Notes: a model not told the origin generated them from the letters alone. A DNA stretch of 64,000 nucleotides from an uncultured Fidelibacterota bacterium (GCA_913040915.1 CAJWHW010000001.1:1-64000), one strand, 5' to 3'; positions 3 to 24,610 are shown, numbered from the stretch's first letter. Numbers and translations: made by a program.

Positions 3-698
3 CTCCGCATCCCCCTTACCTCGGATTACCGCCTGAACTTAGGGTTCACCCACATTGAAAGGTTACCGGATTGGGACAAGCGGTATTGGGCTGGTCATCC
101 AGGATTTACACTGGGGCTTGATATGGCTGTTCCAAGAGCACCCAGACGCAGATTAGAAGTAGGACCATCCGGCCCAACTAATTTGTATGGGCCTTCAGGA
201 GTTGCGCCTGGGATGGAAAATGTACCGTTACATCGGGACTCCACAATAACTATGGCTAATATCGCCGTTGAAACTCTACGAGATTCCATGGCACTAATGA
301 ATAATGAAATGAGAAATCTTTTAGTCCGATTATCGGCAATGGAACAAAATTCTAAATTTTTGACTGATTCATTGAATTCATTACAGTTAGAAACAAATGT
401 TTCAGAAAAAAATATGAATGAAGCATTAAGACATTTATCTAAGTCATTGAGATACTTTTATGCTGGAGATTACCGGGAGGCTTTGAAAGAAGTAGACCTG
501 GCTTTAGAATTAAATCCTAATTTGGCGTTAGCCTATGCCCGCAGAGGGTCAATCTATTATAAATTAGGGGATGTGCAGAGAGCTACTATTAATTGGAATT
601 TAGCACTACGATTGGATCCAGAGTATACAGACGTGAGGAATATTCTAAAAGCTCTACATGAAAATAAAATAAAATCAGCAAGTTTGAACGAGGAATAA
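3..698 (+). CDS. 5'-truncated protein: probable outer-membrane beta-strand region, coiled coil and C-terminal TPR repeats
   Basis: The frame of ORF 123..698 is open back to base 3 (LRIPLTSDYRLNLGFTHIERLPDWDKRYWAGHPGFTLGLD), so the gene probably starts before the window. TPR pattern ALELNPNLALAYARRGSIYYKLG...ALRLDPEY. Confidence 0.75.
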   Translation, partial: LRIPLTSDYRLNLGFTHIERLPDWDKRYWAGHPGFTLGLDMAVPRAPRRRLEVGPSGPTNLYGPSGVAPGMENVPLHRDSTITMANIAVETLRDSMALMNNEMRNLLVRLSAMEQNSKFLTDSLNSLQLETNVSEKNMNEALRHLSKSLRYFYAGDYREALKEVDLALELNPNLALAYARRGSIYYKLGDVQRATINWNLALRLDPEYTDVRNILKALHENKIKSASLNEE

Positions 699-702
699 TT
701 TT

Positions 703-1488
703 ATGGATATTGCTCTAATTATTGGCGTTGTACTAGGAATGGTTTTTATGATAGGCAGTATTGCCTATGCATTATTTGTTGAGGGTGCCGCAGGTGGTTT
801 TGGCAACTTTGTCTCCATTCCAAGTTTTGGAATTGTATTTGGAGGTATGTTGGCATCAGTTATGGTTGCTTTTCCAATGTACCACGTTGCTGCGCTTGGT
901 AAAGCTATAGGAGCTGTACTAAAACCTGCAGATGATAAAATGGGACCTTTAGTAGATGAAGCATGTGAAATTGCTGAATCTGCCCGAAAAGGTGCTGCTG
1001 ATCTTGAAAAGGCTGTGGATACCATTAGAACTTATTTCTTTAAAGATGGTGTCCAAATGGTTGTAGATGGCTATTCACTAGAAGAAGTAACTGAAATTAT
1101 GGAGACTAGAATTGAATATCGTGAAAAACGCGAAAAGGTACAGACTGACATGCTAAAAGCAATGGGTGACTTATCTCCTGCATGGGGCATGGTCGGTACT
1201 TTGATAGGCTTGGTCCTGATGTTGGCGGGTTTTGGTGGTGAAGGTGGAGCGGATAATTTAGGTGGGGGTATGGCAGCGGCTTTGATTACTACTCTTTATG
1301 GTGCTGTATTTGCAAATTTATTTTTTCTTCCTATGGCTCAAAAAATGGGAAATAAAACGACACAAACATCTATGTCAGCATGTCTATTGGTAGAGGCTTC
1401 CAGACTCATTCATCAAAAAAAACACCCTTTAATTGTTCGAGAAAAGTTGAATTCCTTTATTCCCCCTTCGGAGTGGAAACGGGAGTAA
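703..1488 (+). CDS. motA: Stator A subunit, MotA/PomA family
   Basis: Four hydrophobic segments; motifs FFKDGVQMVVDG, SPAWGMVGTLIGLVLML, ALITTLYGAVFANLFFLP. Confidence 0.93.
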   Translation: MDIALIIGVVLGMVFMIGSIAYALFVEGAAGGFGNFVSIPSFGIVFGGMLASVMVAFPMYHVAALGKAIGAVLKPADDKMGPLVDEACEIAESARKGAADLEKAVDTIRTYFFKDGVQMVVDGYSLEEVTEIMETRIEYREKREKVQTDMLKAMGDLSPAWGMVGTLIGLVLMLAGFGGEGGADNLGGGMAAALITTLYGAVFANLFFLPMAQKMGNKTTQTSMSACLLVEASRLIHQKKHPLIVREKLNSFIPPSEWKRE

Positions 1489-1493
1489 TCTAA

Positions 1494-2390
1494 ATGGCTA
1501 TGACACCAGGTGAAAAAAAGGCCTTTGGCAAAGGTTTTGAAGAAGGGGTAAACTCAGTAGAAGAGGGCTTACCGGGTTGGTTTGGTACTTTTGCGGACAT
1601 GATGACACTTCTTTTTGCCTTTTTCGTACTTTTGGCAGCAATCTCAACCATGGATCCTGTTAAATTACAAGAAATGGCCAATTCACAGGGGAAGTCATTG
1701 GGGAGTAAAATCAAGGCTGAAGGTAAAGCAGAAGAAGAAGGTGAATTTGAGCCAATCGAAAATTTAGCCCAAATGAAAAAAGAGCTGCAGGAAGCCATAG
1801 AAGAAATGAAAAAAGAAAACCCTGCGGGTGATCCACCAATTGATATTCAGACTAGTTCAAAAGGGTTGATAGTTAATATCAAAGGAGACTTTGCATTCCC
1901 ATCTGGTAAAGCAGACATGAAAACTGAACTAAAAGGTTTAATGGATGAGGAGATAATTCCAAGAATATTAGCAAGCCCTTTTCAAGTTGAAGTTGCGGGG
2001 CACTCTGATGCTGACCCTATGCCTCCTAAATGGAAGAAGTTTTATGCCAGCAATTGGGAGCTTTCTGCTGCCCGTGGAGCAACTTGTGTAAGGTATATGA
2101 TAGAAAAAGGAGTACCTGCTCCCAGGCTTTTAGCTGCAGGTTATGGAGATTGGTATCCTAAGGGGTTAGATAGTATAAAAAAAGTTAATCCTATGTATAA
2201 TCCCTTAACATTGACTTGGGAAGATCCGGTTATAAGGACTGATAAAGATGGAAGGGAAATAAAAATGCCGACGGTAATGTCCTTAAATTCTAATAAAAAA
2301 CAAAAGGCTTTGAATAGAAGAATTCAAGTTACATTTATTAATCCTCCTCATCATGGAAAAGGACGTTCAGGTACCAGTTATGAGGAATAA
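1494..2390 (+). CDS. motB: Stator B subunit, MotB/PomB family, with OmpA-like peptidoglycan-binding domain
   Basis: TM motif WFGTFADMMTLLFAFFVLL with the conserved Asp; GHSD...NWELSAARG...AAGYG...NRRI; follows motA. Confidence 0.93.
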   Translation: MAMTPGEKKAFGKGFEEGVNSVEEGLPGWFGTFADMMTLLFAFFVLLAAISTMDPVKLQEMANSQGKSLGSKIKAEGKAEEEGEFEPIENLAQMKKELQEAIEEMKKENPAGDPPIDIQTSSKGLIVNIKGDFAFPSGKADMKTELKGLMDEEIIPRILASPFQVEVAGHSDADPMPPKWKKFYASNWELSAARGATCVRYMIEKGVPAPRLLAAGYGDWYPKGLDSIKKVNPMYNPLTLTWEDPVIRTDKDGREIKMPTVMSLNSNKKQKALNRRIQVTFINPPHHGKGRSGTSYEE

Positions 2391-2443
2391 AATTATTCAA
2401 CCCGTATTCATATGCGGTAAAAACACATACCAAGGAGTTTCAC

Positions 2444-4186
2444 ATGAATAAGGTGAAAACAAATAAAATATCCATTATTGGAGCAGTTATAGCGGTCACA
2501 CTGCTCATTGGGCAAGGAGGAGGGTACTTATCACAAAAACTGATGGTGGAAAATAATATTCGTGGACGAGTAAAAGATGCTTTGTCCAAAATAATTGATT
2601 CCCAAAAGTATGTTATCAATGTTGATGTGGAATTAGAAGTTCTGGATGAAGTAAATGAACAGATCACGGTTTTTTCTCAACGCGATACTGATAATCGGGC
2701 TCCAACAACACCTGCAGAAAAAACAGCAGATGCGCTTGTCAAAATTCAGAAAAAAATGGCGATGGAGACTCAACAATCAGAAGAAAGTTATTCAGTAGGG
2801 CTTCCAATTCCTGGATTTGAAGTAGATGTTACCAAACCTAAAGCTGATGTATCGTCTATTACTCAATCAACGCCTATATCCCCTAGAACAATGGAGCCAA
2901 TGGATCTTACGACAGGTTCTGATAAATCAGATGAAGAAATGGTGGATAAGGTACTGTCACGCAAGCGTCCTTCACGAGCGCAAGTGAAGCGTATGGATTT
3001 AACACTTATTCTTCAGGAAGGGGCAGCGCCTGAATTAATTGAAAATATTCGTCAGCTTGCAATGGCTGCATCTAAGTTTGATCGTAACCGCGGAGATAAA
3101 CTTACTATAATGACTGCCAGTTTTAAAGAGCGGAGAGACCAGCGCTCTGCTGAGCAGATTATGTTAAAAAATATTGCTGAAAAAATTGATCTTTTAGAGA
3201 AAAAACGAGTTGCTGAAAACACAGATTGGCGAGATGAAATACAAAAATATCGTGATGAAGAGACAGCTCGACGCCAAGAAGATAAATCTTTCTTTGAAAA
3301 ACAGCTTAACCAGATGGAAGAACAAGCAAGGGCAGAGGCCTATGCTCAAGAAAAGAAAGAAATGCTTCGACGAGATTCCTTGAAAGTAGCCAAACTGAAT
3401 AATGAAATTTCTGCATTGAAAGACATGCTAACTATTACACATGAAGAAGATGCTGAAAAGCAATCAAAGGTGGATTCCACCCGCTTTGCAATGCTGGATA
3501 ATGAGTTGCAAAGTCTTAGACGAATGCTGCTTCAAGCTATTTTAAAAGATTCTATAGAAGCTCAGCAGCAAGCACAGGCACAAATCGAATTAGAATTAGC
3601 ATCTAGAGAAGAAGAAAAAGCAAAGCGTGATTCATTAATTGAAGAAAAAATAATGGCACTTGAAGGTGTGCAAACAGAATTAGATGCACTACAAGCTGAG
3701 CGATCAGAAGGCTTAGGCACTTCCCAATTATTATTAATAGCTTTTGGACTTTTATTAATAATTCTTATGGTGGCACTTGTTTTTGTTATGAACCGTAATA
3801 AGCAACAAGCGCCTATGCCCCCATGGATGTATCCACCACCACCACGTCAGCGCAGGAAAAGGCCGAAGAAAAAGCTAAACAAAGCAAAAAAAGAAGAAAA
3901 AGATGAACCAATAAAGGACGAAGTAAAAGAAGAGCCAAAAGAAGAGCCAAAAGAAACACCTGCCGCTATACAAGAACCGGTAGTGCAGCAAGCTACGGGT
4001 GATGATCCAAATGTATTAAAAAGCGAAATTGATGATATCCGAAAATCGGTTGTATCTATGAGTGTGGGGCAACCAGAAAGAACTGCATCCATTGTTAAAG
4101 AATGGTTAGAACAGCCGGCACCGGAGCCTCCTGCAGCACCTGAAACACCTGATGATGATGGCGCTGAAGAAGAGGACGAAGGCTAA
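2444..4186 (+). CDS. Divergent FliF (MS-ring)-like protein: RBM3 only, long coiled coil, one C-terminal TM and FliG-binding tail
   Basis: Split-RBM3-like segments (VKDALSKIIDSQKYVINVDVEL; LPIPG; VKRMDLTLIL...AASKFDRNRGDKLTI), TM at about aa 429-449, C-terminal PERTASIVKEWL, directly upstream of fliG. Confidence 0.7.
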   Translation: MNKVKTNKISIIGAVIAVTLLIGQGGGYLSQKLMVENNIRGRVKDALSKIIDSQKYVINVDVELEVLDEVNEQITVFSQRDTDNRAPTTPAEKTADALVKIQKKMAMETQQSEESYSVGLPIPGFEVDVTKPKADVSSITQSTPISPRTMEPMDLTTGSDKSDEEMVDKVLSRKRPSRAQVKRMDLTLILQEGAAPELIENIRQLAMAASKFDRNRGDKLTIMTASFKERRDQRSAEQIMLKNIAEKIDLLEKKRVAENTDWRDEIQKYRDEETARRQEDKSFFEKQLNQMEEQARAEAYAQEKKEMLRRDSLKVAKLNNEISALKDMLTITHEEDAEKQSKVDSTRFAMLDNELQSLRRMLLQAILKDSIEAQQQAQAQIELELASREEEKAKRDSLIEEKIMALEGVQTELDALQAERSEGLGTSQLLLIAFGLLLIILMVALVFVMNRNKQQAPMPPWMYPPPPRQRRKRPKKKLNKAKKEEKDEPIKDEVKEEPKEEPKETPAAIQEPVVQQATGDDPNVLKSEIDDIRKSVVSMSVGQPERTASIVKEWLEQPAPEPPAAPETPDDDGAEEEDEG

Positions 4187-4203
4187 GAAGAAGGAAAGAA
4201 ATT

Positions 4204-5139
4204 ATGATCAATGACTATCACATGCTCTCAGGACTTCAAAAAGTAGCTATTCTTTTTTCTGTTGTAGGGGAAAGCCTTGCGCTTTCTCTAGTAAAAGGAT
4301 TGTCAAAAACAGAAGTTCGAAAAATTCGATCTACTTTGCGTGAAATGGGTTCTGTATCCTTCTTAGTGAAAAAAAGGGTTATGGAAGAATTTTATTTTGG
4401 ATTTTTAAGTGAACAGTTTAATGGCAATACCCAAGAAGATGGCCCTATCCAACCTTTTGAGTTTTTAACAGAATTGCAAGATGAGCAATTACTAGCCTTG
4501 TTAAACAAGGAGGACCCACCGGTTGTAGCAATGGTTTTAGCTCAACTTGAGCCCGAAAAAAGGATGCTAATTCTGGATAAAGTAGACCCAATTGAAAAAG
4601 GTCAAATTTTGATAGAATTAGGCTCGTTAGAAGATATTCCTTTGGAAGGCATAATTGAAGTTGCAGCTCGATTAAAGGAAAAATCTTCTTATTTACCTCG
4701 GACTACAGAATTTTCTCGTGGCGGCGCAAAAGAAATAGCTGATTTAATTGGTGAAATGAGTGCCGATGATGCTGAAAGGTATATGCAGACCTTACAAAAT
4801 GAAAATCCAGAGCTTTATAAAGAAGTTAAATTGCTTGTGCTTACCTTTGAAGATATTCTAGGCAATTTCCCAGATGGGATATTGCGTGACCTGATGAACT
4901 CTGTTGAGCTCGATGACTTGGCAATGGCAATGAAAGGAATTGATCAAGAAACTGTGGATAGGGTAATAGGAAATCTTCCACAAAAGAAACAGGCAATGTT
5001 TGAACCGGTTGAAGGGCCAAAGCCTAAACGCGAAGTTGATAATGCAAGAAAGATTATAGTGTCAGCTGCCAAACAGATGGAAAAAGACGGAGCATTTAAT
5101 TTAGCTGACATGATGGGTGGTGGAGAAATGGTCGAATAA
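4204..5139 (+). CDS. fliG: Rotor protein FliG (divergent)
   Basis: LSGLQKVAIL N-terminus, EDPPVVAMVLAQL (EHPQ-box equivalent), GG linker, LTFEDI (MFxF equivalent), LAMAMKG, GPKPKREVDNARKII. Confidence 0.88.
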   Translation: MINDYHMLSGLQKVAILFSVVGESLALSLVKGLSKTEVRKIRSTLREMGSVSFLVKKRVMEEFYFGFLSEQFNGNTQEDGPIQPFEFLTELQDEQLLALLNKEDPPVVAMVLAQLEPEKRMLILDKVDPIEKGQILIELGSLEDIPLEGIIEVAARLKEKSSYLPRTTEFSRGGAKEIADLIGEMSADDAERYMQTLQNENPELYKEVKLLVLTFEDILGNFPDGILRDLMNSVELDDLAMAMKGIDQETVDRVIGNLPQKKQAMFEPVEGPKPKREVDNARKIIVSAAKQMEKDGAFNLADMMGGGEMVE

Positions 5140-5170
5140 TTAAACAGTTTTCCTATAAATTAATTAAAGA

Positions 5171-5198
5171 GCCCCTTTTCAATGAATAGGGGTTTTTT
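5171..5198 (+). terminator. Probable intrinsic terminator closing the motor operon
   Basis: GCCCCT...AGGGGT stem followed by a T-tract, about 30 nt after the fliG stop. Confidence 0.65.
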
Positions 5199-5224
5199 AT
5201 AATAATTACTTTATAATTTTATAT

Positions 5225-6052
5225 GTGAAAACTCGTAGAATTATTCAAATCATAGAAGGTGTAAAAACCACAGATGGGGCAGGTGTACACCTTACTAGAT
5301 TAATTGGTGCGCCAGATTTAAAGATGTTAGATCCATTTTTACTGTTTGACGAGTTTGGCACGGATAATCCAGATGACTATATTGCAGGATTTCCATCGCA
5401 TCCTCACCGAGGTTTTGAAACTATTACTTATATGTTAAAGGGCAAATGGGAACATAGTGATTCAAAAGGTAATAGAGGAATATTAACAGATGGATCTGTT
5501 CAATGGATGACTGCTGGGCGGGGTATTATTCATAGTGAAATGCCTATCCAAACTGATGGGCTGGCCCGAGGTTTCCAACTCTGGTTAAATCTTCCAAAAG
5601 AAAAAAAAATGATCGCACCAGCTTATCAGGATATCCACAGGGACCAGATCCCTACAGTAATGAAAGAAAGAGTCCGCGCACGGGTCATTTCAGGGCAATA
5701 TGAAGGGATTACTGGGCCAGGAAAATCACACACACCAGTACTCATTCTTGATATCCATTTAAAACCTAAAACAAAAACATTTGTTCATATTCCAAGCGGT
5801 TGGAATACTTTTGTATATATTTACAAGGGCGCTGTTTCCCTAAGTGAAATTTTGTCAAAAGGTCAACTAGCTGTTTTCACACAGGTAGGAGAAATGGTAA
5901 TACAAACAGAAGATTTAGAATCTAAAGTTTACCTTGTAGCAGGTGAGCCGCTAAATGAACCAGTATCCCGTGGTGGACCTTTTGTCATGAATACAAGTGG
6001 CGAAATAATACAAGCTTTTGCTGATTATGAATCAGGTAAAATAGACTTGTAG
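5225..6052 (+). CDS. Pirin family protein
   Basis: DPFLLFD, GFPSHPHRGFETITY, QWMTAGRGIIHSEMP, QLWLNLP, GPFVMN. Confidence 0.95.
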   Translation: MKTRRIIQIIEGVKTTDGAGVHLTRLIGAPDLKMLDPFLLFDEFGTDNPDDYIAGFPSHPHRGFETITYMLKGKWEHSDSKGNRGILTDGSVQWMTAGRGIIHSEMPIQTDGLARGFQLWLNLPKEKKMIAPAYQDIHRDQIPTVMKERVRARVISGQYEGITGPGKSHTPVLILDIHLKPKTKTFVHIPSGWNTFVYIYKGAVSLSEILSKGQLAVFTQVGEMVIQTEDLESKVYLVAGEPLNEPVSRGGPFVMNTSGEIIQAFADYESGKIDL

Positions 6053-6055
6053 GTT

Positions 6056-8752
6056 TTATCCTAAGCTTGCTTGGGCCGCTGCCAACCTTGCAATAGGCAC
6101 TCGGAAAGGAGAACAACTTACATAATCTAAGCCACTCTCTTTGCAAAAATGAATAGATGAAGGGTCTCCACCATGTTCACCACAAATTCCAATCTTTAAA
6201 TCATTATTTACACCACGTCCCAGCTTAACAGCCATTGAAACGAGCTTGCCTACTCCAGTTATATCTAAGCTTTGAAAAGGATCGCCAGTTAAAACATTTC
6301 GTTCTAAATAGTCAGGTAGAAAAGAGGCAATATCATCTCGACTAAAACCGTAAGTTGTTTGAGTAAGATCGTTTGTGCCAAAACTAAAAAATTCTGCATG
6401 TTCTGCAATTTCATCTGCGGTCAGACAAGCTCTAGGAAGTTCAATCATAGTTCCTACTAAATATTCAAGCTTAATACCTAATTCATTTTCGATATCTTTT
6501 GCAACGGTTCGGATAATTTTTTCTTGATCTGTATATTCAGTAACGGTCCCTACAAGTGGAATCATAATTTCAGGAGATACAGAAACATTGTCTTGAGTGA
6601 GTTCAGCTGTGGCCTCTAAAATGGCTCTAGCCTGCATCTCTGTAATTTCTGGATAAGCAATCCCCAATCTACAGCCCCGATGACCTAGCATTGGATTTAA
6701 TTCATGAAGTCCAGCAATGCGCTTTTCTACTTTGGAGGTTTCTAGGCTCACATGAGTTGCTAATTCTTCTATCTGATTTCTTGTTAGAGTCATGAATTCA
6801 TGAAGAGGAGGGTCCAAAAGCCGTATAGTTACTGGCTTTCCTTCCATTGCTTTTAAGATTCCCTTAAAGTCTTCTTTTTGAAAAGGAAGCAGTTCCATCA
6901 CAGCGGCTCTTCGGTCTGATTGATTATCAGCCAAAATCATTTTTCTCATAGCTAATATTCGTGTTTCATCAAAGAACATGTGTTCTGTACGACAAAGCCC
7001 AATTCCCTCGGCCCCAAATTGGATTGCCTGTGCAGCATCTGCTGGGCTTTCGGCATTAGTTCTTATTTTTAATGAACGAAACTCATCTGCCCATACCATT
7101 AATTCTTTGTATTCTTTATGAGTATCGGGGTCTGCGGGAATAAGATCTACCTGTTCTGCGTAAAGGTGTCCCACTGTACCATTCATGGTTACCCAATCTC
7201 CTTCTTTTAAAATAATATCTCCAATGGATACTTCTTTCGCAGCTACGTTAATGTGTAAATCACTACAACCAACGATACAGCATTTTCCCCATCCTCGAGC
7301 TACTAGTGCAGCATGAGATGTCATCCCGCCTTTGGCAGTAAGAATGGCTTCAGCAGCATGCATGCCATGGACATCTTCTGGAGAGGTTTCTTCCCGTATT
7401 AAAATCACTTGTTCTCCCTTCTTGTGCCATTCTTCTGCATCATCAGCTGTAAAAACAACTCGTCCTTTAGCGCCACCAGGACCTGCTGGTAACCCTTTTG
7501 CAAGCAAAGTTGAATTTTTTTCTGATTCTGCATCTAGCATGGGATGAAGTAATTCATCAAGTTGTTCCGGATTCACTCGCATGATGGCCGTCTTCTTATC
7601 AATCAGGCCTTCGTTAGCCATATCAACAGCCATTTTAATTGCTGCACTACCATTTCGTTTTCCAACCCGAGTTTGAAGCATCCATAGTCTTCCTTCTTGG
7701 ATCGTAAACTCAATATCCTGCATATCCCTATAATGTTTTTCTAAATTAGTTCGAATATTATCTAATTGTGTGTACAGTTCTGGCATAGATGATTCTAAGG
7801 AAGGCAGTTCCTGAGTATCTGCTGTCTTTGTTGCCTCATTTAACGGATTTGGTGTTCGTAGACCTGCCACCACATCTTCACCTTGAGCATTTGTCAGCCA
7901 CTCTCCAAAAAATTTATTTTCTCCAGTTGCGGGGTTACGGGTAAATGCAACACCAGTGGCCGAATTGTTACCCATATTGCCAAATACCATAGATTGTACA
8001 TTAACAGCGGTTCCCCATTCATCAGGTATATTTTCTATCCGGCGATAATTAATAGCTCGTACGCCATTCCAGCTTTGAAAAACTGCTTTAATGCCACCCC
8101 ATAGTTGTTCCATTGGTTCATCTGGAAATTCAGCATTCAGAGTTGTTTTTATTTCAGATTTAAATGAATTAGTTAGTGTTTTCCAATCATCAGCTGAAAG
8201 ATCCGTATCGTTAGTGTAATTATTTTGCTTTTTATAATCATCAAGTAATGACTCTAGCCTATGGCGGATACCTTGACCGTCTTTCGCTTCAATCCCTGCA
8301 GCTTTTTCCATAACCACATCTGCATACATCATTATCAGTCGCCGGTAAGCATCATATACAAACCGGGGGTTATTTGTTTTTTTAATTAGGCCGGGTATAG
8401 TCTTTGTTGTAAGCCCAACGTTTAATACCGTTTCCATCATCCCCGGCATAGAAGAACGTGCACCAGAACGCACAGACACTAATAATGGATCATTTTCATT
8501 TCCAAATTTTGTGCCCATAATTTTTTCAGTAAAGGAAAGCGCTTCATTAACTTCCTGATCTAATTCACTCGGGAAAGAATGATTATTATTGTAATAGTAA
8601 GTACAAACTTCTGTGGTGATTGTAAACCCAGGGGGGACGGGGATATTCAAATGATTCATTTCTGCAAGATTAGCCCCTTTCCCGCCTAATAAATTTTTCA
8701 TGCCAGCTTTACCATCAGCTGTACTATTTCCAAACTGATATACGTATTTCAT
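6056..8752 (-). CDS. ppdK: Pyruvate, phosphate dikinase
   Basis: LLGGKGANLAEM, VSVRSGA, GGMTSHAA (phospho-His), GIGLCRTEHMF, FSFGTNDLTQ, GICGEHGG. Confidence 0.98.
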   Translation of the reverse strand: MKYVYQFGNSTADGKAGMKNLLGGKGANLAEMNHLNIPVPPGFTITTEVCTYYYNNNHSFPSELDQEVNEALSFTEKIMGTKFGNENDPLLVSVRSGARSSMPGMMETVLNVGLTTKTIPGLIKKTNNPRFVYDAYRRLIMMYADVVMEKAAGIEAKDGQGIRHRLESLLDDYKKQNNYTNDTDLSADDWKTLTNSFKSEIKTTLNAEFPDEPMEQLWGGIKAVFQSWNGVRAINYRRIENIPDEWGTAVNVQSMVFGNMGNNSATGVAFTRNPATGENKFFGEWLTNAQGEDVVAGLRTPNPLNEATKTADTQELPSLESSMPELYTQLDNIRTNLEKHYRDMQDIEFTIQEGRLWMLQTRVGKRNGSAAIKMAVDMANEGLIDKKTAIMRVNPEQLDELLHPMLDAESEKNSTLLAKGLPAGPGGAKGRVVFTADDAEEWHKKGEQVILIREETSPEDVHGMHAAEAILTAKGGMTSHAALVARGWGKCCIVGCSDLHINVAAKEVSIGDIILKEGDWVTMNGTVGHLYAEQVDLIPADPDTHKEYKELMVWADEFRSLKIRTNAESPADAAQAIQFGAEGIGLCRTEHMFFDETRILAMRKMILADNQSDRRAAVMELLPFQKEDFKGILKAMEGKPVTIRLLDPPLHEFMTLTRNQIEELATHVSLETSKVEKRIAGLHELNPMLGHRGCRLGIAYPEITEMQARAILEATAELTQDNVSVSPEIMIPLVGTVTEYTDQEKIIRTVAKDIENELGIKLEYLVGTMIELPRACLTADEIAEHAEFFSFGTNDLTQTTYGFSRDDIASFLPDYLERNVLTGDPFQSLDITGVGKLVSMAVKLGRGVNNDLKIGICGEHGGDPSSIHFCKESGLDYVSCSPFRVPIARLAAAQASLG

Positions 8753-8804: not shown

Positions 8805-11800
8805 TTAAAATGTAGGTGAGAAATAACGAATCTCTTTCAAATTACCATTTTTATCATAAAAGAACCATTTGTCTACCATCTTCCCATTGCGGTATGCACC
8901 CTGCATTTCTTTTCTAGACCTATCATAATCCCACCAGCTGGTCCAGGTAGCATCTTTTTTCCCACCAGCATAATATCCTTCTGTTAGTCTTCCATCTTCA
9001 AACCAAGCTGTCCATTTGCCTTCTCTAGTTCCATCGCTAAATGTTCCCTCTTGAACCTTTTTGGAATTGTTATCCCAAAATATCCACAGCCCATCTGCAT
9101 TACCCTCGTTTAAATTACCTTCTTTTTCTTTTACACCATTTTTATGAAAAAATGTCCAGTGACCATTCATAATGCCACTATCGTAAGTCCCATGAGATTT
9201 AATATGCTCATTATCATACCACTCGGTCCACTTCCCATGTTTTTCCCCATTTTTATAACCACCTTGCTCTTGTTTCCCTCCGCTCCATGGCAAAACAGGT
9301 TCTGGTTCCGGTATATCTACAAGAATAATTTCCGGCACATCTTTGCCGCTTGGGTACCATTTTACCCACTGACCATCTTTTTTACCTTTATTGGTGCGAC
9401 CCAAAAACAAATAACCAACTTCTTGGTTTTCTTGAGTGATAATTCCAGTAAATGGGATTTCATCACCAATTTTATAAAAGATAGAATTGCGCTCTACTAA
9501 ATCTTCTAAGGCAATGTGCTCTAGTCCTGTTCCAAAATCAAATTCAAAATCTTTTTCACCCTTTGAATTCCAATAAGTCCATATACTTTCAGGTAATCCA
9601 TCTTTGAAAAACCCTTCCCTTTGCATAGTGCCATCTTCATAATAATATGTAGTTAAACCTTCACGAATACCTGCCTGATGGAATCCCTGCTCTTTTATTT
9701 GGTCACTGCCATGGTACCAAATAATCCAAGGGCCTTCTGGCGTATCAGACTTATATGTAGTCATCGTGGTACGATAACCATCTTCCCAATAAGTACTTGG
9801 GCCATCAAGTCGACCATGTTTATAATATTTTTCATCTTGTTTTTCTTCTGTTGTAAGCCACAGAGTTGATCTACCATCTCGCTTACCTCCTGAAAATGTT
9901 ATTTCTTCAGAAACAGAGCCATCCGTCTCATAGTACAGCCACAGTCCATCTTGCTCATTTGTAATATAGTTGCCCTCTGATTGTTTTACACCAGTTTCAT
10001 ACCACCAAGTCCAAACGCCATTTTTCTTACCATCTAAGTAGTGACCCTCCATTTCCTTATTATCATTAAGGTACCACCACCAATTCCATAGGACTTCCTC
10101 ATTTTCAGCTTTATAAGTGCCCCCGTTATACGACCAACTCCCATTGGTAAAAGTCAAATTATGATCGTGTTCATACCACCAGGTCCATTTTCCATGAGGT
10201 TTTCCTTTATGGTAAGTTTGTTCCATATGTAGATGGCCATTAGGATACCAGTATTTATAACTTCCATCCACGTTGCCCATATCAAATGTTCCACGTTCTT
10301 TTGGTAGACCGTCTTCATACCATAGGGTCCAATCACCGTGTTTTTTGCCGCGATAATAAACGCCGTCAACTTCTTTTTGTCCATTACGGTACCATTGCAC
10401 CCACTGCCCATCCCTCTTTCCTGAAGAAAAGCGTCCCAATAGGAGATAATCTTTAATGCCGCCTGTTTCAACCACCATACCAGTATAAGGTTTATGTTGA
10501 CCAATTTTATAAAAAATACCATCACGATTTTCCAATTCAGCAATACGAACCTGATCTAATCCCATTCCGTAATCAAACCCAAAATCCTTTGTCCCATCAA
10601 CCTTGTAATAACTCCAAACCCCTTCTGGTTCATTATCTCGGATTACGCCTTCGCGGTCTTTATTACCATTATCATACCAAATAGTGACTTTACCATTAAT
10701 ATCACCATTCACAAAGGTTTCTTCTAATTTTTTATGATCTGAATTATTCCATTGAGTCCAGATTCCGTGTTTCACTCCAGTTTTATATGTCCCTTCACGA
10801 TCTTTAACTCCATCTGGCCGCCACCAAATCCACTGACCATCCATTTCTCCATTACTGAAATTTTCCTGTGATTTCAATGTCCCATCATCATACCAAATTA
10901 ACCATTGACCGTGTTTTTCACCTTGGTTGTATTCACCTTCTATAACTTTATAGTTATCTGTATTCCATTCCAACACCTGACCATTTTTAATTCCTTTATC
11001 AAAACTAATTTCTTTTGTTTTTCGGCCGTCATCAGCCCAATATGTCCATTTGTTATCTAGCTTATTTTCAGCATATTGTCCAGTTTTTTCCTTAACAATA
11101 CCTCCTTCATACCATGATGTCCAATCTCCGTTTAATTTCCCATTTACGTATGTAGCTTGAAATTTTTTATTTCCATTTTCATACCATGATGTCCAAACAC
11201 TGTCCCGTTCCCCTTGAGTAAATTTTCGTTCTGATTTTTTTGCACCGTCTGAGAACCATTGGATCCAAAGTCCATCTTGTTGCCCATCAACAAATCGAGT
11301 TTGTTCTTTTTTAATTCCTGTCTTATAGTACCAAACCCATAAACCATTTTGTTTACCATTATCATAAAGACCTTCTTCAGATCTATTTCCATTTTCAAAC
11401 CAACGAATTAAAGTTCCGGCCAACTTACCACCTTGATAATTGGCTTCTTCCTTACGATTGCCATTATTATACCACATCGTCCATAATCCTTCTCGGTTAC
11501 CAGATGCATAGGTGCCTTCCATTTTCATTTGAGGAGGGTCATAAAATGTGTCTCCGTCTAGATCTAGCAAAACAGTTTCTGTAGAATCCCAAACACCATT
11601 ACCCTCACCCTCATCTTGAGTGTTGGGTTCACCATCTTCTCCAAAATCTTGATATACTTCGCCCTCGTACCAAAATGTCCAGAGTCCATCCCGAACTCCG
11701 TTGTTATAGTTACCATCGGTTTGAAGTGCCCCACTGGGGTAATATGTTTTCACCAACCCGTCGTTTTGAGCAAGCGCCACTGACGACAGAATGATAGATA

Positions 11801-11825
11801 AAACCAGTATTTTCCGCATGGTCAA
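8805..11825 (-). CDS. Large exported MORN-variant (YwqK-like) repeat protein; probable start ATG at 11819
   Basis: Signal peptide ending ALA-Q; dozens of ~24-aa repeats of the form EGxYxxGxxxGxWxxWYxNG. Confidence 0.85.
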   Translation of the reverse strand: MTMRKILVLSIILSSVALAQNDGLVKTYYPSGALQTDGNYNNGVRDGLWTFWYEGEVYQDFGEDGEPNTQDEGEGNGVWDSTETVLLDLDGDTFYDPPQMKMEGTYASGNREGLWTMWYNNGNRKEEANYQGGKLAGTLIRWFENGNRSEEGLYDNGKQNGLWVWYYKTGIKKEQTRFVDGQQDGLWIQWFSDGAKKSERKFTQGERDSVWTSWYENGNKKFQATYVNGKLNGDWTSWYEGGIVKEKTGQYAENKLDNKWTYWADDGRKTKEISFDKGIKNGQVLEWNTDNYKVIEGEYNQGEKHGQWLIWYDDGTLKSQENFSNGEMDGQWIWWRPDGVKDREGTYKTGVKHGIWTQWNNSDHKKLEETFVNGDINGKVTIWYDNGNKDREGVIRDNEPEGVWSYYKVDGTKDFGFDYGMGLDQVRIAELENRDGIFYKIGQHKPYTGMVVETGGIKDYLLLGRFSSGKRDGQWVQWYRNGQKEVDGVYYRGKKHGDWTLWYEDGLPKERGTFDMGNVDGSYKYWYPNGHLHMEQTYHKGKPHGKWTWWYEHDHNLTFTNGSWSYNGGTYKAENEEVLWNWWWYLNDNKEMEGHYLDGKKNGVWTWWYETGVKQSEGNYITNEQDGLWLYYETDGSVSEEITFSGGKRDGRSTLWLTTEEKQDEKYYKHGRLDGPSTYWEDGYRTTMTTYKSDTPEGPWIIWYHGSDQIKEQGFHQAGIREGLTTYYYEDGTMQREGFFKDGLPESIWTYWNSKGEKDFEFDFGTGLEHIALEDLVERNSIFYKIGDEIPFTGIITQENQEVGYLFLGRTNKGKKDGQWVKWYPSGKDVPEIILVDIPEPEPVLPWSGGKQEQGGYKNGEKHGKWTEWYDNEHIKSHGTYDSGIMNGHWTFFHKNGVKEKEGNLNEGNADGLWIFWDNNSKKVQEGTFSDGTREGKWTAWFEDGRLTEGYYAGGKKDATWTSWWDYDRSRKEMQGAYRNGKMVDKWFFYDKNGNLKEIRYFSPTF

Positions 11826-20875: not shown

Positions 20876-21490
20876 TTATTTTAGCTTGAAATTAACAGGT
20901 ATAGAGATCCAAACTGCCACAGCTCTTTCCCTCTGGGTCGCAGGTACAAACTTTGTTTTTCGAATGGCTTCCATAGCAGCTTCATCTAAACCTGTATTCG
21001 GCACTCCTTTTAATATCAAAGTTTCTTTTACTCGGCCTTTCTCATCAATAAATGCTTGCACCACAACTATACCTTCAATCCCTGCTTCCTGAGCGATTTC
21101 AGGATAAATAGGTCTAATAGCAGACTTAGGTCTTGGAGGGTCATCATAGGGAATAAATGTAACTCTGGGACCAGATGGCGGAGGTGGTGGAGCATCTAGA
21201 TTTGAAAAATCGTCAAAATCTAATTCATCCAAAGTCAAGTCATCAGCTATATCCTCATCATCAGAAGGTACAGGAATGGATGGTCTGGCCGGTGGAGGAG
21301 TATTATCAATTTGTTGAGTTTGTGGTATATCAATATTTTCAATGATAACTTGATCTACCTCTTCAAATTCCATACTGTTCAAAAAGCGAGGAAAAATTAA
21401 AAAGTTTAAGATTACCAATCCGACCCCAATTAAGCCAGTAATTCGAACCACAACAGGATATTTTTCTTTGAGTGGATTGATATATTCCAC
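20876..21490 (-). CDS. tonB: Energy transducer TonB
   Basis: N-terminal TM, Pro-rich linker, YPEIAQEAGIEG.VVV...IDEKG C-domain. Confidence 0.9.
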   Translation of the reverse strand: MEYINPLKEKYPVVVRITGLIGVGLVILNFLIFPRFLNSMEFEEVDQVIIENIDIPQTQQIDNTPPPARPSIPVPSDDEDIADDLTLDELDFDDFSNLDAPPPPPSGPRVTFIPYDDPPRPKSAIRPIYPEIAQEAGIEGIVVVQAFIDEKGRVKETLILKGVPNTGLDEAAMEAIRKTKFVPATQRERAVAVWISIPVNFKLK

Positions 21491-21900
21491 TAGTCTACCA
21501 GAGTCTTAGATGAATAGTTTAATTTCAACGCTTCCACTTTCCTTAAATTATCATGAATATCTGATATGAGTCCCATTTCAGCTTCTTCATCTCCTTTCAA
21601 AGAAACAACAATTTGCGGGTCTGCTACTCGCTTATCATACATAACCAATGCTACATCGTCTACGGCCAATAGTCTATCATCAATAGATATTAAACCATCT
21701 TTTGAAACCCAAACTTGAACGGTGTGCCGTTTAGATTTCAGCTTTTCTATCCGTTTTGCTTTTGGAAGATTTACAGGAAGACCCGAGTACTCTTTTAAAA
21801 CTGTAGTAACCATAAAAAACACCAAAAGCATAAAAATAATATCTGGCATTGATGCAGTTGGAATATCACTTGAAATTTTAGTTTTTCTTGAAAATTTCAT
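21490..21900 (-). CDS. exbD: ExbD/TolR family protein
   Basis: SMPDIIFMLLVFFMVTT. Confidence 0.9.
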   Translation of the reverse strand: MKFSRKTKISSDIPTASMPDIIFMLLVFFMVTTVLKEYSGLPVNLPKAKRIEKLKSKRHTVQVWVSKDGLISIDDRLLAVDDVALVMYDKRVADPQIVVSLKGDEEAEMGLISDIHDNLRKVEALKLNYSSKTLVD

Positions 21901-22298
21901 TAATTGCTGTTTGCGATAGAGATTCTTTTTGCATCAGCCATCTTTAGCTGGTCAATTACTCTTACGTAATCATTGTATGCTGTCTTTGGATGAGCTTTTA
22001 CAGAAATGATAAGCTTATCATTTGCTCTCAGCTTTTGACCAACAACACGATGGATCTGATCCACATTGGTTGGCTCTTCGTCCAGAAGCACTTTCCCTTG
22101 AGAATTTATCAGACAGTTTAGGATATTTTCTTTCCGAATTTCAATTTCCATATCACCCGGCGGTGGTAGAACAATGCCAAGTCCTTTATCGGTATCAATG
22201 GTGGTTGTTACCAAAAAGAATATTAAAAGTAGGAAAGCGATATCTGCCATTGACGAGGTAGGAATCTCGCCACCTTTAAATCTGCGTTTTTTGGCCAT
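21900..22298 (-). CDS. exbD: ExbD/TolR family protein
   Basis: SMADIAFLLLIFFLVTT. Confidence 0.9.
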   Translation of the reverse strand: MAKKRRFKGGEIPTSSMADIAFLLLIFFLVTTTIDTDKGLGIVLPPPGDMEIEIRKENILNCLINSQGKVLLDEEPTNVDQIHRVVGQKLRANDKLIISVKAHPKTAYNDYVRVIDQLKMADAKRISIANSN

Positions 22299-22312
22299 TA
22301 GCCTGAAATTTT

Positions 22313-22927
22313 CTAGTTTTTGGCTTCCTGCTCGTATAAGTAATCCATGATTTTCACAGATTGCTCTTCCATATCCAGGACAAGCTTATCAATCCGGGAT
22401 ACAAATATATTCTGGCAGGTCTGGATAATCATAGCAACAATTAAACCGAATGCAGTTGTCAATAATGCTTGCGAAATACCTCCAGCAACAACAGCCGGAG
22501 AAATATCATTTGCTGCCTTAATTGCATCAAATGCGCTAATCATTCCAACAACTGTTCCAGTAAAGCCCAGCATAGGGGCTATGGTGATCACGGCATTTAA
22601 CCAAATCATGTTTTTTTCTAGAAAGGCCATTTCTATAGCACCTGCATTTTGGATTGCCTTTTCAACATCATCTAATCCCCGGTGCATTCTGGAAAGCCCT
22701 GCATGGAAAATTGCAGCAACAGGACCATCGGTCTCTTCACAAGTGGTCGCAGCTGCAGTCGCACCATTTTCATCAATTGCGCTTGTAATTTCATCAAAAA
22801 ATGACTGTGAATCAACGGCAGACATCATGAGTGAATAAAAACGTTCAATGGCAAATCCAATTCCAAATAGCAATGTAATCAGGATCGGCCACATAAAGCC
22901 ACCGCCCTCTAAGAAATAATGGACCAT
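22313..22927 (-). CDS. exbB: ExbB/TolQ proton channel
   Basis: GGGFMWPI, APMLGFTGTVVGMI, GISQALLTTAFGL. Confidence 0.92.
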   Translation of the reverse strand: MVHYFLEGGGFMWPILITLLFGIGFAIERFYSLMMSAVDSQSFFDEITSAIDENGATAAATTCEETDGPVAAIFHAGLSRMHRGLDDVEKAIQNAGAIEMAFLEKNMIWLNAVITIAPMLGFTGTVVGMISAFDAIKAANDISPAVVAGGISQALLTTAFGLIVAMIIQTCQNIFVSRIDKLVLDMEEQSVKIMDYLYEQEAKN

Positions 22928-22996: not shown

Positions 22997-24610
22997 TTAA
23001 TTGAATGAATGTAAGAATGCATCAGCTTCATTAAAGTGTTTTAGTGTTTGGAGAACTTGGTAGTCGGTCTGTAATCGGATGTTAGCGGCTTCATCTTTTC
23101 CCCAAATAGAACCAGCAATCTCTCCTTTAATTCTATTGTGTATAAAATTTAGGTTTTGTTGAAGTGAATCATGAATGACATAAATAGAATCTTTATCAAG
23201 CTGTACCAAAAATTCTGCGAATAAATCATCAGAAACGCGCCAGGAATCACGAAACTGATCGAAAGACTGAAATTCATCTTGGTGCTTGGATGCATATTCT
23301 GATGCAAAATTGAATATAGGTCTTTTTGCGCTTCTCAATACTTTTCCTGTCTCACCATTGATATTATTTTTATAGGGAATATAAATATCCGGTGTGATAC
23401 CTCCACCTCCATATACAGTTCGTCCTGATTTTGTTTCATACTTTGGTCGTAATTCCTTTAGACTATCAATTTTAGATTCTCTATTACTTTCATATAATTC
23501 CCGGTAATAAGCCAAATCATTCCCATCTTCAAAAGGCCGCTGTATTAATCTCCCGGATGGTGTATAGTATCTTGCAATTGTTACTCTAACTGCTGCGCCA
23601 CTATCTAATGGTAGTTGCCGTTGCACCAGTCCTTTGCCGAAGCTGGTTTCACCAACAACTAATCCACGATCTAAATCCTGCACAGCCCCCGACACTATTT
23701 CACTAGCACTGGCAGACCCACGATTAATCATTACAATCAGAGAAAAATCATCATAGCCTATATTGGGATCACCCATAAATACTTGATTCGATTCCTTGAC
23801 TTTACCGATAGTATAAACAAGAGTATCTTCCAGAGTAATAAACTGATCAGCAATCGCTGCAGCTTGCTCCAAAAATCCGCCACTATTTCCACGTAGATCA
23901 AACAAAAGCCTTTTCATCCCTTTAGCTCGTAGAGACTTTAACGCCTTACTTACCTCTTTTTCTGTAGTTGCTGAAAATCGCCTTAGAAATATATATCCAG
24001 TTTGATCATCTATCATGGTGGCTGCACCGACGCTGTAGATTGGAATATTGTCTCTGATAATTGTGACATCAAAAGGCTTTCCTATTCCAATTCGGCTGAT
24101 AGTAACATCAACCTTTGTCCCTTTTTGCCCGCGTAGCTTTTTAAATACCTCATCTTTTGTAATCTTATAGGCATCTTCACCATTTATGGCTATTATTTTA
24201 TCCCCTGACATAAGCCCCACAATATCAGATGGGCTATCTGGTATAGGAGAAATTACAGTAATGAAACCATCTAATATATCAAACTCAATTCCGATTCCTT
24301 GAAAATTTCCCTTGAATAATTCAGTAATATTTTCTTGTTCTTTTGCAGGAATATATGTCGAATGCGGGTCAAGCTCTTCCATTAATCCATGAAATGCACC
24401 ATCCATAACCTTATTCATGTCAACAGTGTCAAAATAAAAATGATTTACATATGAAATAATTTGTTGCAGAACGTTAATTTTTTCTCGTAAGACCCTGTAA
24501 ACATTTTGATTACTGGAATATATTTTAGGTGTAAGCAGTACAGCTGCTAAAAGAAAACCGAATGATGCAGATATTACCAGAGGCCAAATACGCCGAAAGT
24601 TTTTAAACAT
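22997..24610 (-). CDS. ctpA: Carboxyl-terminal processing protease, S41 family
   Basis: LDPHS, PDZ GIGIEF, DLRGNSGG, SASASEIVSGA, SFGKGLVQ, TIARYYTPSG. Confidence 0.93.
   Translation of the reverse strand: MFKNFRRIWPLVISASFGFLLAAVLLTPKIYSSNQNVYRVLREKINVLQQIISYVNHFYFDTVDMNKVMDGAFHGLMEELDPHSTYIPAKEQENITELFKGNFQGIGIEFDILDGFITVISPIPDSPSDIVGLMSGDKIIAINGEDAYKITKDEVFKKLRGQKGTKVDVTISRIGIGKPFDVTIIRDNIPIYSVGAATMIDDQTGYIFLRRFSATTEKEVSKALKSLRAKGMKRLLFDLRGNSGGFLEQAAAIADQFITLEDTLVYTIGKVKESNQVFMGDPNIGYDDFSLIVMINRGSASASEIVSGAVQDLDRGLVVGETSFGKGLVQRQLPLDSGAAVRVTIARYYTPSGRLIQRPFEDGNDLAYYRELYESNRESKIDSLKELRPKYETKSGRTVYGGGGITPDIYIPYKNNINGETGKVLRSAKRPIFNFASEYASKHQDEFQSFDQFRDSWRVSDDLFAEFLVQLDKDSIYVIHDSLQQNLNFIHNRIKGEIAGSIWGKDEAANIRLQTDYQVLQTLKHFNEADAFLHSFN

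Follow-up and report, generated by a model that had tools for sequence, protein, structure and literature searches.

What does a bacterium do with the core parts of a flagellar motor when no flagellum accompanies them? The question is raised by an operon located at the start of a 64,000-nucleotide stretch of DNA from an uncultured Fidelibacterota bacterium (GCA_913040915.1 CAJWHW010000001.1:1-64000), referred to below as the window and always meant at its full length. The window corresponds to the initial 64 kb of contig C1 in a SAR406/Marinimicrobia metagenome-assembled genome (MAG) of 1.86 Mb, distributed over 71 contigs, 85% complete and 2.3% contaminated. Its first five genes, hereafter called the module, encode the 3' part of an outer-membrane protein, the stator subunits MotA and MotB and two rotor proteins resembling FliF and FliG. 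FliG, FliF and MotAB-type stators are treated as flagellar hallmarks. The analysis presented here indicates that the operon probably encodes a flagellum-independent, switch-less, ion-driven rotor-stator machine spanning the cell envelope. Shown by the data are the genes, their conservation, the purifying selection acting on them, their presence in genomes devoid of export, rod, filament and switch genes, and the ring-domain and barrel folds of their products.

The window holds the 3' two-thirds of a conserved SAR406/Marinimicrobia operon of six to seven genes. Five open reading frames (ORFs) of the + strand fill positions 3-5139, with intergenic gaps of 4, 5, 53 and 17 nt, and are followed by a terminator-like structure:

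3..698, + strand: 3' part of an outer-membrane barrel/long helix/TPR (tetratricopeptide repeat) protein ('TPR3'), 231 aa, 5' end open; Pfam TPR_2, 2.1e-11
703..1488, + strand: MotA/PomA-type stator A subunit, 261 aa; Pfam MotA_ExbB (PF01618), 1.6e-26
1494..2390, + strand: MotB-type stator B subunit, 298 aa; MotB_plug (PF13677), 4.1e-15, and OmpA (PF00691), 4.3e-8
2444..4186, + strand: FliF-like rotor protein, 580 aa; YscJ_FliF_C (PF08345) only, 1.7e-5
4204..5139, + strand: FliG-like rotor protein, 311 aa; FliG_N 8.1e-14, FliG_M 1.6e-7, FliG_C 5.9e-22
5169..5198, + strand: intrinsic-terminator-like hairpin followed by a U run; sequence and RNA fold

ORF calls and Pfam domains agree on the five co-directional genes, 4-53 nt apart, reported by the first-pass annotation of this DNA, a model's reading of the sequence alone. 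The terminator placed there after fliG was recovered as well: RNA folding of 5135-5215 yielded a G+C-rich hairpin with six U at about 5169-5198 (-18 kcal/mol, z -3.35), none of 200 shuffles folded as well, and the structure is accepted although a terminator pattern scan reported none after fliG. As also stated there, the 5' part of the operon is absent because the window begins at base 1 of the contig. The extent of five genes had been set too short, since a CarboxypepD_reg gene and sometimes another TPR gene lie further upstream. A tblastn search with the upstream proteins of relatives located these 5' genes nowhere else in the assembly of the window's own genome; the sole match was a 26-27% identical CarboxypepD_reg paralogue on another contig (G000:C28:8952-10097), directly preceding two TonB-dependent-receptor-like genes.

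Conservation and distribution of the module

Gene order was compared in 52 related loci by means of an ORF/BLAST script. The order barrel/TPR-MotA-MotB-FliF-like-FliG is found in 40 of these; the other 12, interrupted by contig ends, display the same order as far as they are readable and none has another neighbour. The synteny, which the first reading proposed to test for conservation, is kept, and it persists in the loci L057-L061, where FliG identity falls to 39-41%. The full recurring order is CPDreg-(TPR2)-barrel/TPR-MotA-MotB-FliF-like-FliG: a CarboxypepD_reg-domain protein (CPDreg) is encoded upstream in every locus reaching that far, the TPR2 gene separates it from the orthologue of the window's first frame in some lineages only, and a TPR lipoprotein-like gene and a Smr gene often stand still further upstream. 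In one MAG the whole module occurs twice, on different contigs (L046 and L048), which reflects either a genuine duplication or a bin that mixes two strains.

The ratio of nonsynonymous to synonymous substitution (dN/dS) was calculated according to Nei-Gojobori for four genes in 11 locus pairs, i.e. 44 comparisons, of which nine had saturated dS and many others a dS above 1. Values of 0.008-0.118 were obtained in 35 comparisons, and the three least diverged locus pairs gave 0.008-0.100. Together with the intact frames and the preservation of key residues, these values sustain the earlier opinion that the locus is not a decaying relic. A hint of expression, not a proof, is provided by RNA-library contigs from three runs, which align with portions of the motA, fliF-like and fliG genes at 99% identity or more, one contig crossing the motB/fliF-like junction (2355-2514). 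DNA may be present in such libraries, and large parts of the operon remain uncovered (1594-2301 and 4957-5300, for instance), these holes being uninformative.

The first-pass annotation had seen no other flagellar gene in the 64 kb. For the five families searched, this observation extends to the whole assembly: FHIPEP/FlhA, Flagellin_N (PF00669), FliMN_C, Flg_bb_rod (PF00460) and CheW each returned 0 matches in the 1.86 Mb available, while all five families gave matches in control genomes, FlhA in four of them. The comparison was widened to 251 genomes of the phylum, each at least 85% complete. The FliF-like profile matches 178 of these, belonging to 84 of 100 genera, and FlhA was found in 59. 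According to a hand tally of both lists, 137 genomes possess the module without FlhA, 41 possess both, 18 FlhA only and 55 neither; where a flagellated genome matches the FliF-like profile weakly, canonical FliF may in some cases be responsible. The genomes with the module and without FlhA include high-quality ones, for example G211 (95% complete in 2 contigs) and G058 (96% in 10 contigs). In the window's own family the module occurs in 20 of 22 genomes and FlhA in none, whereas in family f12, whose genomes measure about 1 Mb, the module is absent from all 21. Of 61 relatives, 53 gave a FliG match, as did 33 of the 35 of high quality; one of the 53 (G051) is only a weak match of canonical FliG. 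The module and FlhA are both present in G271. In G056, a canonical cluster (FlgC, FliE, full FliF, FliG, FliH, FliI, FliJ, FlgD, FlgE, MotA and MotB) sits on a different contig from the module, and its FliF, FliG and MotAB are only 25-32% identical to the proteins of the module, which is consequently not the motor set of that flagellum. The proposal of a stand-alone stator-rotor module has therefore withstood the search for a complete flagellar set elsewhere: none was encountered in the own genome, and 137 of the genomes sampled have the module without FlhA.

Rotor, stator and outer-membrane components

The FliF-like protein was analysed using an alignment of 39 orthologues (A1) and an AlphaFold 2 (AF2) model with a mean predicted local distance difference test (pLDDT) score of 67.6. 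A hydrophobic N-terminal segment, signal or anchor, is directly followed by a ring-building motif 3 (RBM3)/collar region at residues ~25-230 (A1, AF2), in which the RBM3 fold (alpha-beta-beta ... beta-beta-alpha-beta) is interrupted by a variable insert with an invariant LPIPGFE. Two long helices (233-337 and 345-422 in the AF2 model) then contribute ~190 added residues of periplasmic helix, and the chain continues with a transmembrane (TM) helix (426-452), a Pro/Lys-rich linker and a conserved C-terminal helix pair (522-556). There is no match to YscJ_FliF (PF01514), i.e. no RBM1/RBM2, as against 197 bits for the canonical FliF encoded at L066, which belongs to a flagellated relative in the same order. 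RBM1-RBM2 seats the export gate in FliF. When the model was submitted to Foldseek against the PDB, FliF RBM3/S-ring structures occupied the first 18 ranks (E 1.9e-6 to 3e-5), and the 19th match dropped to E 0.09; the TM-score on the target was 0.53-0.61 for RBM3-only FliF entries, and a profile search of the PDB returned FliF at E 0.0027. The tail motif reads '...QPERTASIVKEWLEQP' in the module versus '...HPEDSAKIIRSWLTRP' in the canonical FliF of L066 and, to judge from the two sequences, appears to resemble it. The relation to FliF put forward in the first-pass annotation is borne out by the RBM3 fold; a normal FliF it is not, being restricted to RBM3 and endowed with an added coiled coil.

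The FliG-like protein scores above the Pfam cut-offs for FliG_N, FliG_M and FliG_C (52.5, 31.9 and 78.4 bits) and is 25-26% identical to canonical FliG of the same order, two of which are included in the alignment (A2). In comparison with these, ~25 residues are missing at the end of the N domain and the FliM-docking motif EHPQR is reduced to its first Glu, the Gly-Gly being kept. The segment LPQKKQAMFEP, nearly invariant within module FliG, stands in place of the canonical torque helix 'MSERAAEMLRDEL'; the canonical 'SERAAEMLRDEL' aligns with PQKKQAMFEP, leaving a Lys at the Arg position and a single Glu.

The joint prediction of FliG 1-100 with the FliF-like tail (512-562) obtained a score of 0.42 versus 0.00 for the best control, with at least 77% contact agreement between runs and a partner pLDDT of at least 64 (own alignments). 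In calibration, 116 of 157 solved complexes attained the mark, as did 2 of 215 mismatched pairs; just 18 of the 157, and both of the mismatches, did so with a score of 0.60 or lower. The pairing of the two proteins also appears in a single chain, the Fibrobacterota protein P0271, which begins with a signal and a short RBM3-like part, continues with a TM helix and a FliF-like tail and ends with the FliG N, M and C domains. P0271 and the window's FliG share 25% identity over 72% of the latter, and the fused chain lends independent genomic support to the FliF-like/FliG pairing. A search of a representative library of 1.84 billion proteins with the FliF-like profile produced 364 proteins at E <=0.001, many of them fragments; among 15 matches scanned, eight contained YscJ_FliF_C, none YscJ_FliF, and seven no FliF family at E <=0.001. 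The ESM Atlas search returned the family's own clusters (Fidelibacterota) and one Poribacteria lead below 0.9, a canonical-looking FliF.

In MotA, the loop Arg R95 and the prolines P159 and P210 are invariant in alignment A3, two canonical flagellar MotA included; in MotB, the channel Asp D35 and the peptidoglycan-binding residues N187-W188, R194 and N274-R275-R276 are invariant in alignment A4, again when set against canonical flagellar copies. Judged by these residues and their domains, both proteins are of the flagellar stator type, with the expected fold, loop Arg, two Pro, plug, channel Asp and OmpA-like domain. Within its OmpA-like domain, the MotB of the window's family and of some other families carries an insert of about 40 residues (~224-262), which distant lineages and canonical MotB lack. 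The own genome contains three MotA/ExbB-family genes, namely module MotA, ExbB and an orphan MotA on contig C4. The ExbB gene is part of an ExbB-ExbD-ExbD-TonB operon on the - strand of the window (20876-22927), beside a C-terminal processing protease gene (22997-24610). The orphan MotA (MotA_N and MotA_ExbB domains) is paired with a MotB (plug and OmpA) at G000:C4:52265-53927, with no FliG nearby, behind proS, recO and a rhomboid gene. Strong orthologues are widespread in the phylum and number 0 of 21 in f12, at a threshold that also catches module MotA. The orphan pair might supply the module's rotor with an additional set of stators.

The outer-membrane/TPR partner of the first-pass annotation could be recognized from its full-length orthologues. 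The protein of 3-698 is 86-87% identical to residues 227-466 of those at L026 and L023 (tblastn). The AF2 model of the L016 orthologue (mean pLDDT 73.5) comprises a signal helix, 12 strands (45-271), a disordered linker, a 75-residue helix (308-382) and a TPR part (385-458), and in Foldseek its barrel matches the 12-strand outer-membrane barrels FapF, NanC and KdgM (E ~1e-4).

Downstream of fliG, a pirin gene (5225-6052), found at this place in some relatives and lacking in others (e.g. L016), is followed by a convergent gene for 898 aa (6056-8752). A 1006-aa protein made almost entirely of short Gly/Trp/Tyr-rich repeats is encoded at 8805-11825 (- strand).

Proposed mechanism and alternative explanations

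What is kept of the flagellum is precisely the pair that produces torque (MotA loop and FliG-C), the domain that forms the ring (RBM3) and the connection joining the two (FliF tail and FliG-N), while the parts responsible for export and for a switchable propeller have disappeared. The most economical mechanism would be a switch-less, ion-driven rotor with its motion absorbed in the periplasm. By homology with the flagellar motor, MotA5B2-type units would be anchored to peptidoglycan by the MotB OmpA-like domain, let H+ or Na+ pass via the invariant MotB Asp and push the C-domain of a FliG ring. The latter would be carried by the cytoplasmic tails of a FliF-like ring built from the RBM3/collar part, as is the flagellar S-ring. 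The device would operate without a chemotactic switch, because there is no FliM/FliN and no FliM-docking motif, and the ring would carry no axle, because RBM1/RBM2, export gate and rod are all lacking. More speculatively, torque or force might be passed on in the periplasm via the ~190-residue helices of the FliF-like subunits, and its receivers there might be the CarboxypepD_reg and TPR proteins and the helix-TPR arm of the 12-strand barrel. The machine would act on the outer membrane, and its output might be surface movement, secretion or envelope work. A wider proposal is advanced tentatively, our confidence stopping somewhat short of even: SAR406 and, through fused relatives, several other phyla may possess an unrecognised machine in which flagellar-type stators turn a free-standing FliG/FliF-RBM3 rotor, which a coiled-coil palisade connects to the barrel/TPR protein and which powers some activity at the cell surface, for instance adhesin movement, secretion or attachment to particles. 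Its origin would be either a pre-flagellar rotary stage, of which it would be a living relative, or an early branching-off from the flagellar motor. A full-text literature search, whose coverage excluded subscription-only papers, found no description of such a module.

A number of observations weigh against a rotary machine. The likeness to FliF is marginal by several measures: the PF08345 match attains 25.7 bits for a cut-off of 23.8, no NCBIfam family matches the window's protein, and hhalign of its profile against the canonical FliF of L066 gave a non-significant probability of 3%. The NCBIfam scores of FliG, MotA and MotB are below the respective cut-offs, with 103.3 bits for FliG (TIGR00207, cut-off 226.7), 174 and 153 bits for MotA in its best matches, MotP (cut-off 394) and PomA (cut-off 341), and 113 bits for MotB (MotB-family, cut-off 259), so that all three miss the NCBI equivalog level. 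The multimer check of FliF tail and FliG, suggested at the outset, gave weak support, and the pass may reflect predictor memory because complexes of FliF tail and FliG-N have been solved already. The charges of the FliG torque helix are changed, and the stator contact may therefore differ; the charged residues of this helix are given for E. coli as R281, D288 and D289 in one source (PMC12505986). At locus L020 (2947-9194) the barrel/TPR gene and the FliF-like gene are each broken up into several overlapping frames, through either assembly errors or decay of this copy, and a few whole-genome FliF-like matches have an in-frame stop. The module was not found in 73 of the 251 genomes, all 21 of f12 included, and is therefore dispensable. 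The own genome is 85% complete and the start of the operon is missing. Finally, every mechanical step is taken from homology.

An attractive role for the module would be in type IX secretion (T9SS) or the gliding coupled to it, where it would be the missing motor in SAR406, replacing GldLM/PorLM and the PorKN ring of Bacteroidota and supplying energy for secretion across the outer membrane or for the movement of adhesins. The own genome encodes the SprA translocon, split over two contig ends (G000:C14:60-3008 and G000:C25:28900-31923; 305 and 248 bits, cut-off 200), together with 52 matches to T9SS C-terminal sorting domains (CTD), 51 of them above cut-off, and SprA occurs in 250 of the 251 phylum genomes. 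GldM (TIGR03517) was found in 0 of 251 genomes and GldM_1st (PF12081) in 0 of 5 near-closed ones, GldL gave no match above cut-off in 31 genomes, and GldK only matches below cut-off, the best GldK-like match of the own genome being a lone gene; these GldL/M/K searches were without positive control, the families being matched in 0 of 14 control genomes. With the same reservation as to controls, SAR406 may run its T9SS without a recognisable PorLM/GldLM motor. The module shares with GldLM-GldKN an inner-membrane ion motor, a long periplasmic element and a partner anchored in the outer membrane. The distributions of the two systems nevertheless differ. A hand comparison revealed the absence of the module from 72 of the 250 SprA-bearing genomes, so that it is not the general T9SS motor, and in f12, where SprA is present in 21 of 21 genomes and the module in none, T9SS must work without it. 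No T9SS gene lies in the module operon. On balance, we regard this role as improbable.

A second serious alternative, a non-rotating envelope system of the Tol-Pal kind, is likewise considered unlikely. Here, force from MotAB would combine with a static scaffold of the FliF/FliG-like proteins and act, via the TPR proteins and the barrel, in tethering or remodelling outer membrane and peptidoglycan, as during division. This arrangement would accommodate the altered charges of the FliG torque helix, MotB and the barrel provide anchors in the peptidoglycan and the outer membrane, and TPR2 weakly resembles YbgF/CpoB and BamD (TIGR02795 2.9e-4, TIGR03302 7.5e-7). The retained parts are nevertheless those that make torque in flagella, i.e. 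the FliG C-domain, the MotA loop with R95 and the ring-forming RBM3, and a housekeeping role is ill-suited to loss in whole families of near-complete genomes such as f12.

As far as genomes can, the genomes exclude the two remaining readings. That the module simply supplies the motor of a real, ordinary flagellum, whose other genes are elsewhere or lost to incomplete assemblies, is very improbable: the own assembly is fragmented and incomplete and 41 of the 178 module-bearing genomes have FlhA, but the five flagellar/chemotaxis families are missing from the own genome, the other 137 include the nearly complete G211 and G058, G056 has a canonical fliF, fliG and motAB of its own, and the FliF-like protein is without RBM1/RBM2 as FliG is without its docking motif. 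A functionless remnant of a lost flagellum is scarcely credible, for even though flagella have evidently been lost in most of the phylum (FlhA 59/251) and the L020 frames are split, dN/dS is low, full-length frames persist across families with only 39-41% FliG identity, lineage-specific novelties (the coiled coil, LPIPGFE and LPQKKQAMFEP) are conserved, and so are new non-flagellar partners in the same operon.

Significance and comparison with known systems

The same flagellar parts are thus maintained under strong selection in an abundant, mostly flagellum-less ocean phylum, wired to outer-membrane proteins and not to a rod. If the module rotates, it would represent a new use of the flagellar rotor-stator pair and a minimal natural torque system, with no export apparatus and no switch. 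It bears on the origin of the flagellar motor and may help to explain how SAR406 deals with particles or surfaces in the deep ocean. This stator clade is named 'flagellar ion transporters', distinct from non-flagellar homologues, in a recent stator phylogeny (PMC12505986); should the machine be real, such 'flagellar' stators would not mark flagella. Caution is advisable before fliG or motAB matches in metagenomes are scored as 'motility'.

Several known systems invite comparison. PflA/PflB of Campylobacter and MotX of Vibrio are TPR/Sel1-type periplasmic proteins that position stators in complete high-torque flagella; a likeness to the module may lie in the periplasmic TPR proteins. The 5:2 motors Tol-Pal and TonB-ExbBD share with it an A subunit of the MotA/ExbB superfamily (PF01618), a YbgF/CpoB-like TPR/coiled-coil protein and an outer-membrane partner. 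Unlike ExbD/TolR systems, the module has a MotP/PomA-like stator with MotB plug and OmpA domain and a FliG/FliF-like rotor, and the SAR406 genome keeps its ExbB-ExbD-ExbD-TonB operon separately. GldLM(PorLM)/GldKN(PorKN), as outlined in PMC11205867, combine an inner-membrane ion motor, a long periplasmic element and an outer-membrane-anchored partner. The module displays this same inner-to-outer-membrane layout within the same FCB (Fibrobacteres-Chlorobi-Bacteroidetes) group, in a phylum that also has SprA and many CTD cargoes. Unlike GldL5M2, its motor is of the MotAB type with a FliG/FliF rotor; there is no homology, and no module protein matches GldL or GldM in Pfam or NCBIfam. P0271 contains the same domains as the module rotor, which in SAR406 is divided over two genes and has the long coiled coil that P0271 lacks.

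The flagellar motor core itself (FliF MS-ring, FliG ring and MotA5B2/PomA5B2) has the same four families, adjacent in the module, and shares with it the MotA Arg and two Pro, the MotB Asp, plug and OmpA-like domain, the N, M and C domains of FliG, RBM3/collar and, by motif likeness, a FliF-type tail. The differences concern both the genomes and the proteins. Unlike flagellated bacteria, most carriers of the module lack the genes for export gate and ATPase, for rod, hook and filament, and for FliM/N and Che proteins. Unlike flagellar FliF, the FliF-like protein is devoid of RBM1/RBM2 and possesses the extra periplasmic helix, and its FliG partner, unlike flagellar FliG, has a shorter N domain, only the first E of EHPQR and a different stator-contact segment. 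Unlike those of flagellar loci, the operon partners of this putative motor are outer-membrane barrel/TPR and CarboxypepD_reg proteins.

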